A DNA stretch of 64,000 nt. Source: Escherichia coli (GTDB lineage: Bacteria; Pseudomonadota; Gammaproteobacteria; Enterobacterales; Enterobacteriaceae). Numbering within the stretch: position 1 is the first letter of the stretch; each line of letters begins with the position of its first letter. The stretch lies in the NCBI RefSeq assembly GCF_003334785.1, contig NZ_QOWV01000003.1; one strand, 5' to 3'. The position numbers are program-made. Below, in pieces: positions 51,901 through 54,900 of this stretch.

Positions 51901-54900
51901 AGAAACGAGATTAACGCCTCGCCGGTCCCCAGTTCCTGGATTGCCTTTTCGGTATCAAACGCCGGATTGGCCCGCATGGTTTGCGCCGCAGCTTTTACCG
52001 CTTTCTGATCTTTTGGCGTAAAAGCCCGCAAAGCGTGCTGAACGCGATTACCGAGCTGGCCGAGCACATTATCCGGAATATCAGACGGGTTTTGCGAAAC
52101 GAACCAGACGCCCACGCCTTTTGAGCGAATAAGCCTTATCACCTGCTCAATCTTATCCAGCAGTACCTGCGGTGCATCGTTAAACAGCAGATGTGCTTCG
52201 TCGAAGAAAAACACCAGTTTTGGCTTCTCCAGATCGCCCGCTTCCGGCAATTGTTCATACAACTCTGAAATCATCCACAGCAGGCTGGCGGCGTACAGTT
52301 TCGGCATCTGATAAAGCTTCTCGGCGCTGAGGATATTAATAACGCCTTTACCGTTGGCATCGGTGCGCATCAAGTCTTTGATATCCAGCATCGGCTCACC
52401 AAAGAAGTGTGCTGCGCCTTGCTGTTCCAGCGACAACAGCCCGCGCTGGATGGCACCAACCGATGCGCTACTGATATTTCCGTACTGATTCTGGAAAGAT
52501 TTGGCGTTATCGCCGATGTACTGGGTAATCGCCCGCAGATCTTTAAAGTCGAGCAGTAACAGCCCCTGATCGTCAGCAATTCGGAAGATGATATTCAGCA
52601 CGCCAGATTGCACATCGTTGAGATTCAACAGCCGCGCCAGCAACAGCGGCCCCAGATCCGAAACCGTCGCCCGCACCGGATGGCCTTTCTCGCCAAAGAT
52701 ATCCCACACCACCACCGGATTAGCATGCGGTTGCCAGTCATTTACGCCGATATTTTTAAGCCTTGCGAGCAGTTTTTCCGACGCCGTTCCTGCCTGCGCG
52801 ATACCGGTCAGATCGCCTTTCACATCGGCCATAAACACCGGCACGCCGATTTCCGATAGAGACTCCGCCAGTTTTTGCAGCGTGACAGTTTTACCCGTCC
52901 CCGTTGCGCCAGTAATCAGCCCGTGACGGTTAGCCATTCCCGGCAGTAAAAACAGTTCTGTGTCCGGCGTGCGGGCAATTAACAGGGGTTCGCTCATGAG
53001 ATTTCCTCCAGTTTCCTGCCTGGAGTATAGGCAACGGCTGTGCACTCTTCACCGCTAAATTCAGCAGATTGCGAGACGCCTTCCAAAGAGATTTAAGTGC
53101 CGGGCGACAGGCTCCCGGCAAAGGGATCAGAAGTCGGCTTTCAGGACCACGCGGTAGCGCGCTTTACCATCGCGTACATGCTGGATGGCGTCGTTAATTT
53201 TCGACATCGGGAACAGTTCGGTGGTCGGCGCAACCTTGCTGCGGGCGGCAAAACGCATCAGCTTACGCAGCTCATAAGGCGTGCCGGTAGCAGAACCAGA
53301 GATGCTGCGGTCGCCCGCAATTAACGTAAAGGCCGGAACAGACAGCGGCGTGAGAACCGCACCGACCGTATGGAAATTACCGCCATAGGTCAGCGCCTCA
53401 AAATAAGGCTGCCAGTCGAGGCTGACGTTCACAGTATTGATAATGAGATCAAACTGCCCCGACAGGGCTTTCAGTGCCTGCGGATCGCGGCTATTCACCA
53501 CTTTATCGGTACCCATCGCCAGTACTTCCTGCTCTTTCGCCGGATTAGAACTAAAGGCCGTCACCTCGCATCCCATTGCGTGCAGAAGTTTTATAGCGAT
53601 ATGCCCCAGCCCGCCAATACCAATTACCCCAACGCGGCTGGTAGCAGTGATATGGTGCATCAACAGTGGTTTAAAGACCGTGATACCGCCGCACAACAGC
53701 GGCCCGGCGGACTCGATATCAATATTTTCTGGCAGTGGAATCACCCATTGCCAGTCCGCACGCAACTTCTCGGCAAAGCCACCGCGATTCATAATCGTCG
53801 GCACCGCACCTTGCTCGCAGTTGATCTGATTACCGCTAATACAGGTGTCGCAGTGACCACAGCTACGCGCCGTCCAGCCAATCCCGACACGCTGACCGAC
53901 CTGCAAACCTTTATCCTGCGCGGCGCTCCCGAGTGCCACCACGCGCCCAATCACCTCATGCCCGGCAACCAGCGGATATTGTGAAAATCCCCATTCGTTA
54001 TCGATCATCGACAGATCGGAATGACAAATCCCGCAGTAATCCACCTGCACTTCAACATCTTGTGGCTTCAGCTCACCGGGATCGTACTCATAAACTTCCA
54101 GTTCGCCGCCCGCTTCTTTTGCGGCATAGCTTTTTATCATCGACATTTTTGGGTCCTTCTCTGGTGTTGTTTGGGAAGTGTAGAGCATGGCAGGGCGGGG
54201 TGCCTGGAGTGTGACAAAGGTTACATATCGCTGAGTGTAATGCTGAAAATTTCAGCACTTAGCGAGGTGGGTGCAAGCTGGCGCTTGCATGGTGGCGTGC
54301 GACAGGTATAATCCACAACGTTTTCCGCATACCTCTTCAGTGCCGAAGTGGCGAAATCGGTAGACGCAGTTGATTCAAAATCAACCGTAGAAATACGTGC
54401 CGGTTCGAGTCCGGCCTTCGGCACCAAGTCTTATCTAAGTCGTTGTTTTAAAACAATTTAATCCATAATTTTGCTTGAAATCGCGTAGCCCCTCTTACAA
54501 AAGGGTATACGAGGCGATGTCTCAGCGATATAAACTCTATCGTCGAACCAGCGGCATTTATGTTGTCCGCATTAGCATTCCCCAACGTTTTCGTCGATAC
54601 GCAGGACAGTGTGAGATTCACACTTCAACAGGCACTCACGATCTTCATGAAGCAAAGCAGAAGTCCGCGCTCCTGTTGGCGGTCTGGTATCAGACCTTAC
54701 AAGAGTATGAACAATTGGATTATCGAACTTTAAGTGACTGCGCCCCGCTGCTTGCTGGTGAGGGTATGATCTCGCTTTCTAACTTTGCTCAGTCAGTTGA
54801 GTTGCCTGTTGCGCAATTAATACAGGCGGTGATGAACCGTAATCTGCCCGTATTCTGGCTGGCGACGGGGCAGGCTGGCTTTTATGTTGCAGCGCTCTCT

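Follow-up and report, generated by a model that had tools for sequence, protein, structure and literature searches.

A probable empty-site allele at the ahr–yjgR junction of Escherichia coli

In Escherichia coli K-12, the gene order in this part of the chromosome is yjgR, idnR, idnT, idnO, idnD, the convergent idnK, ahr, and leuX. In the DNA analyzed here, a 64-kb stretch of another E. coli genome (the window), yjgR and ahr are directly adjacent on the same strand. Was an operon lost from this chromosome, or is the junction without it the original one? A sequence-only reading of the window had placed the idn genes between yjgR and ahr in K-12, correctly according to the K-12 genome. It had also noted the adjacency and the missing operon, and both are borne out by the evidence below.

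The yjgR–ahr junction and its counterpart in K-12

The ORF listing and the annotation agree on two neighboring minus-strand genes, whose orthology is given by an equivalog match, by tblastn, and by the annotation of identical DNA. Ahr matches NCBIfam equivalog NF047908 at 550.7 bits (cut-off 470), and the window YjgR is 98% identical to K-12 YjgR in amino acid sequence (tblastn). A tblastn search of the 64-kb window with the five K-12 Idn proteins returned no idn orthologue. The matches are distant paralogues, namely TreR (21%), BdcA (27%), and Ahr itself (33%).

The gap between the two genes is wider than the roughly 80 bp first read from the sequence. The longest minus-strand ORFs lie at 51495–53045 (516 codons) and 53127–54188 (353 codons), with a non-coding gap of 81 bp between them (53046–53126). 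The earlier figure arose because the GTG at 53045, which opens the longest ORF, was used as the yjgR start. The start is the conserved ATG at 52995–52997, with GGAGG 7 nt upstream. The yjgR homologues of other genera begin aligning at this ATG, and RefSeq annotates yjgR as 500 aa on identical DNA in Nissle 1917, LTC201, and ML35. The true intergenic spacer is 52998–53126, or 129 bp, and its yjgR leader holds the GGAGG (53005–53009) and a TATACT (53024–53029). The features of the region are listed by position, strand, and supporting evidence.

46190–54428, no strand: valS 5′ part to leuX, near-identical to Nissle 1917, left boundary approximate (mismatch-per-kb profiles)
51495–52997, minus: yjgR, 500 aa, HerA-like ATPase of unknown role (ORF; RefSeq annotation of identical DNA)
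52998–53036, minus: yjgR leader, common to idn-less and idn-carrying genomes (homology with K-12 up to 53036)
53037–53126, minus: 90-bp spacer specific to the empty-site (idn-less) allele (BLAST break points against K-12)
53042–53088, minus: conserved non-coding block 5′ of yjgR, presumed promoter/operator (cross-genus alignment)
53098–53120, minus: GC-rich hairpin, likely ahr terminator (seven-pair stem in MFE and centroid folds)
53127–54146, minus: ahr (yjgB), NADPH-dependent aldehyde reductase, 339 aa (NCBIfam equivalog NF047908; annotation)
54342–54426, plus: tRNA-Leu (leuX), integration site of the downstream island (Rfam tRNA match at 54342–54423, 59.4 bits; annotation of identical DNA)

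Alignment to K-12 by pairwise BLAST places the idn cluster in K-12 where the window has 90 bp. Homology breaks between 53036 and 53037 and again between 53126 and 53127, and the 90 bp in between correspond to 5,087 bp in K-12. The window and the GntII/idn locus of K-12 occupy the same chromosomal site with the same flanking genes, and their homology extends over all of ahr and over the 39 bp that precede yjgR. They differ in that the window lacks the 5,087-bp cluster and has the conserved spacer instead, whereas K-12 lacks both the hairpin past ahr and the conserved block upstream of yjgR. The idnK stop of K-12 lies 3 bp from the ahr stop, and in idn-carrying genomes 77 bp separate idnR from yjgR, which follows it downstream on the same strand. 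GC content is 47.3% in the K-12 insert, 54–56% in pepA, lptF, lptG, yjgR, and ahr, and 55.6% in the 90-bp spacer.

The sequence-only reading had joined this junction to the leuX island as one variable neighborhood. The neighborhood is variable, in that a different integrase and island follow leuX in every genome inspected and yjgR and ahr are themselves diverse, but the idn cluster is not part of the leuX island. One tRNA-leuX genomic island does adjoin the window junction, from 54342 on. Its genes (54517–64000) begin with a 636-aa site-specific integrase that has no NCBIfam match. After it come NIPSNAP, a frameshifted DUF1643 gene, a recombinase-family protein, an AbiJ-NTD4 protein, and a transposase fragment. 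This island is covered to at least 80% in 285 complete genomes. At the leuX site of O157:H7 there is a related integrase; the islands of other strains are entirely different. The idn cluster, in contrast, lies on the far side of ahr, which separates it from leuX. No integrase is found within the 5,087-bp K-12 insert, and no direct or inverted repeats of at least 8 bp are found at its junctions. Repeats, tRNA adjacency, and integrase, the marks of a tRNA-associated, integrase-mobilized island, are all missing. Exchange of idn would run through homologous recombination of the flanks, not through site-specific integration.

How common is each state? The sample was 5,426 complete E. coli genomes, which over-represents laboratory K-12 derivatives and clinical clones. 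In this biased sample, whose values are not population frequencies, yjgR lies next to ahr in 3,213 genomes (59%) and the idn cluster, covered to at least 80%, is present in 2,039 (38%). K-12 is thus the minority type in the collection, and its gene order is not the species norm here. DNA resembling idnD was sought with blastn in a distant mode, sensitive to about 65–70% identity. It occurs in 2,051 of the 5,426 genomes, every match at least 95% identical, never on a plasmid, and this sensitive search found none in the other 3,375. Idn-less genomes match the K-12 idn region in the 39-bp yjgR leader only. The sequence-only reading had allowed that adjacency might be the norm, with idn genes elsewhere. 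The first part holds in this collection (3,213 of 5,426). The second does not: each of the six idn-carrying E. coli loci inspected has the cluster between yjgR and ahr, and no idnD-like DNA is found on plasmids. For the source genome of the window, it is population statistics only that would exclude an idn copy elsewhere.

A conserved spacer and the age of the two alleles

Across six diverse idn-less E. coli strains, E. albertii, and Citrobacter werkmanii, the 90-bp spacer is conserved, with 89% mean column identity in the alignment. A blastn-short comparison with the K-12 idn insert found no idn-derived sequence in it, only chance matches of 8–14 bases (E at least 0.3). Conserved beyond E. 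coli and free of any trace of idn, the spacer is not a deletion scar. A 9-mer, CCGGCAAAG, occurs beside the left junction in K-12 and beside the right junction in the window. It was rejected as a micro-homology or remnant (blastn-short E = 1.2; not conserved in the Citrobacter pair).

Two elements stand out in the spacer. The hairpin at 53098–53120 has a 7-bp GC-rich stem, lies 6 nt past the ahr stop, and appears in both MFE and centroid folds. C. werkmanii differs in sequence at this position and keeps the pairing. The hairpin was not called by a simple terminator scan because it has no clean T-run, and promoter and terminator consensus scans returned nothing in 52900–53250. The block at 53042–53088 is nearly invariant from E. 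coli to C. werkmanii and is partly kept in Enterobacter cloacae and Leclercia. The yjgR leader (52998–53036) is conserved in Citrobacter, Enterobacter, and Leclercia and degenerate in Enterobacter sp. Ag1. Both the hairpin and the block are missing from the idn-carrying alleles of K-12 and Citrobacter sp. FP75. We infer that the hairpin is a terminator of ahr and the block a promoter or operator of yjgR. A structured RNA in the spacer was also considered and rejected, as the whole spacer folds no better than shuffled sequence (z = −0.02). Rfam matched leuX only and has no family for the block.

The outgroup scan covered at least six Enterobacteriaceae outgroups among the matches listed; Salmonella was not among the matches listed. 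In E. albertii and C. werkmanii, ahr lies next to yjgR with a homologous spacer. Citrobacter sp. FP75 has idn at the same site, with a left junction homologous to that of K-12. Its idn cluster differs from that of K-12 by 20% in nucleotide sequence and its flanks by 15–20%. Both the empty and the idn-carrying alleles thus occur in Escherichia and in Citrobacter, at the same junctions. Within E. coli, the idn cluster differs by 0.3–0.9% across four diverse strains; in the same four, yjgR differs by 3–6% and the 3′ third of ahr by 1.5–5.8%. Sorted by idn status, the flanks show no fixed difference in yjgR and four in the last 19 bp of ahr, and beyond about 20 bp idn status is no longer linked to polymorphism in the flanks. 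The idea of two flanking haplotype blocks that sort by idn status was rejected, since fixed differences are confined to these four sites.

We consider it likely that the ahr–yjgR junction is polymorphic for the presence or absence of idn, with two alleles, and that the window has the empty-site one. This allele would be the older and commoner one, inherited, with idn swapped in and out by homologous recombination. In the empty-site allele, the conserved 129-bp spacer, comprising the ahr hairpin and the yjgR upstream region, would join ahr and yjgR. In the other allele (K-12, CFT073, and IAI39), 90 bp of this spacer would be replaced by the 5.1-kb GntII/idn cluster, which encodes the IdnR regulator, the IdnT transporter, IdnO, IdnD, and the IdnK kinase. 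The cluster, lower in GC, would have entered as a cassette in a single ancient insertion. A lineage would then change from one state to the other when homologous recombination in the core genes on either side exchanges the allele as a whole. The window strain would have inherited its empty site instead of gaining it by a recent deletion.

That the idn insert is the derived state and the empty site the ancestral one is fairly probable. This polarity is favored because the insert has low GC, idn diversity is low, the junctions are free of repeats, no integrase is present, and the spacer is conserved in outgroups. The idn-carrying allele is also old, because idn in Citrobacter sp. FP75 shares its site and left junction with K-12 and has diverged as much as its flanks. 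The polarity is a matter of parsimony and composition and not of a rooted reconstruction. Absence of idn here probably describes an ancestral empty site, not a loss relative to a norm.

The opposite polarity is unlikely. In that history, idn would be ancestral to Escherichia and Citrobacter, and the empty site would have arisen once, when foreign spacer DNA replaced the cluster, later reaching the majority through recombination. The idn-carrying junction common to K-12 and Citrobacter sp. FP75, with its flank-like divergence, fits such a history, as does the presence of idn genes in Salmonella (PMC6054384). So does the decay of linkage within about 20 bp, which shows that both alleles are old. 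Foreign spacer DNA is, however, hard to reconcile with a yjgR-proximal half that is partly conserved in Enterobacter and Leclercia despite a different gene in the slot. The spacer also supplies the ahr hairpin and has a GC content like that of the flanks, unlike idn, and E. albertii, the only other Escherichia species among the matches listed, is idn-less.

A recent deletion, in which an ancestor with the K-12 arrangement lost idn by an illegitimate or IS-mediated event, is highly improbable. Deletions do happen at this locus. In isolate 23 (OW848980.1), an IS1 replaces the 5′ part of idnT, all of idnO, and most of idnD. In the idn-carrying E. coli 2013C-4974 (L087, 8527–10345), idnO and idnD are pseudogenes, idnO through an internal stop and idnD through a frameshift, and ahr is frameshifted as well; the cluster is decaying in some carriers. 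The IS1 deletion in OW848980.1 keeps K-12-type junctions. The window has no K-12-type junction sequence, idn fragment, or IS scar, and its 90-bp spacer resembles neither idn nor the sequences at the K-12 junctions. A deletion cannot create the spacer sequence, which is the same in 3,213 genomes and which, together with its hairpin and upstream block, E. albertii and C. werkmanii also conserve. Collapse or dropping of the cluster during assembly can be set aside almost entirely, given identical DNA in the independent complete genomes of Nissle 1917, LTC201, and ML35 and the same arrangement in thousands more.

The slot holds other genes in other genera. In Enterobacter cloacae, it is occupied by an ATP-dependent glycerone (dihydroxyacetone) kinase gene (L006, 8217–9863; TIGR02361, 575.8 bits against a cut-off of 574.95), which, counted with the empty and idn states, would make three fillings of the slot. 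The corresponding gap contains a 568-codon ORF in Enterobacter sp. Ag1 and is similarly sized in Leclercia. E. cloacae and Leclercia both retain the core of the yjgR leader, but the kinase is a single unrelated gene that is not in the window. Tentatively, the junction may act as a conserved slot for cargo, with no mobile-element machinery of its own. Its fillings (empty, idn, and glycerone kinase) would have persisted, or crossed genera by homologous recombination, since before the Escherichia–Citrobacter split.

Exchange of the junction between lineages

The window belongs to an ML35-like strain (99.9% identity to ML35 over 29.7 kb). Its segment 51404–54428 is nevertheless 100% identical to Nissle 1917 and is near-identical to it from about 46.19 kb on. 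The stretch 46190–54428 is also near-identical to LTC201, a B2 strain like Nissle 1917. The rest of the window is 2–4% from Nissle 1917 and CFT073. An assignment of the window to a B2 or Nissle-like strain, from the 100% identity over 51400–54400, was rejected on these distances. The idn-less locus of Nissle 1917 thus matches that of the window within a different lineage. It also differs in a 129-bp tandem duplication in the Nissle lptG–yjgR spacer and in the leuX-distal region.

Nissle 1917 is idn-less, and CFT073, like IAI39, carries idn. Nissle 1917 and CFT073 belong to the same clone, ST73. Across the first 50 kb upstream, the two differ by 8 mismatches; from about Nissle position 4,967,100, inside valS, to leuX they differ by 6–55 mismatches per kb. 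Over the same valS-to-leuX interval, Nissle 1917 and the window differ by 0–9 mismatches per kb, and the last 3 kb are identical. These profiles point to a recombination breakpoint inside valS and to a tract that carries the idn-less allele. In pepA–lptG, the shared tract is 0.8–1.0% from K-12, O157, and O103 and about 2.5% from CFT073. Since the tract is closer to the former strains than to CFT073, Nissle 1917 most likely imported it, over a length of at least 8.2 kb, an event that would have changed its locus from idn-carrying to an empty site.

Nucleotide diversity among E. coli is 1–6% in yjgR, up to 9.9% in the 3′ third of ahr, and 0.6–2.4% in pepA–lptG. The genes yjgR and ahr are several-fold more diverse than pepA–lptG, and patterns of pairwise distance are mosaic. 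This diversity is consistent with frequent imports beside the leuX hotspot.

Other parts of the window also vary among strains. The lptG–yjgR spacer (51404–51532) contains a variable palindromic REP-like element; K-12-type genomes lack 51404–51477, and it is this 129-bp segment that is tandemly duplicated in the Nissle 1917 assembly. The holC–pepA spacer (47115–47410) holds tandem copies of a unit of about 96–100 bp, 91–96% identical, whose number varies among the window, K-12, CFT073, and Nissle 1917. At 35632–40203, between pyrL and argF, the window and ML35 have K-12-type yjgH, bdcA, bdcR, and tabA and a gene for a 503-aa hypothetical protein. CFT073, Nissle 1917, and LTC201 instead have an arginine deiminase cluster with arcA, arcC, argF, a YfcC-family gene, and an arginine repressor. 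The yjgN gene (42487–43710) is split into two ORFs of 152 and 250 aa; it is annotated as a pseudogene with an internal stop in ML35 and is frameshifted in CFT073 and Nissle 1917.

Expected consequences for the L-idonate route and for yjgR

The patchy distribution of idn has been described before. Nissle 1917 lacks idnK-idnDOTR, which K-12 and CFT073 have, and it still grows on gluconate and 5-ketogluconate (PMC7924626). Among E. coli genomes, 83% of those positive for pks and about 31% of those negative for it have the five idn genes (PMC8545132). The idnK gene is absent from the ST131 strains JJ1886 and S250 and present in SE15 (PMC5369007), and L-idonate genes are enriched in one STEC group (PMC4216125). 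From these reports, the presence or absence of idn is an already known feature of the accessory genome.

For an annotator, the expectation from established pathway knowledge is that the window strain should lack the subsidiary GntII route for L-idonate and 5-ketogluconate and keep the main GntI gluconate system. Regulation of yjgR may also differ between the alleles. The idn allele lacks the conserved block at 53042–53088 and sets yjgR directly downstream of idnDOTR on the same strand; it may thereby rewire yjgR. The evolutionary value of the locus is modest. An accessory operon would here behave as an allele, swapped by recombination in its core flanks with no mobile element, and the pair of Nissle 1917 and CFT073 captures one such swap at near single-kb resolution. 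A cargo slot whose alleles are shared by Escherichia and Citrobacter would, if true, add modest interest of its own.
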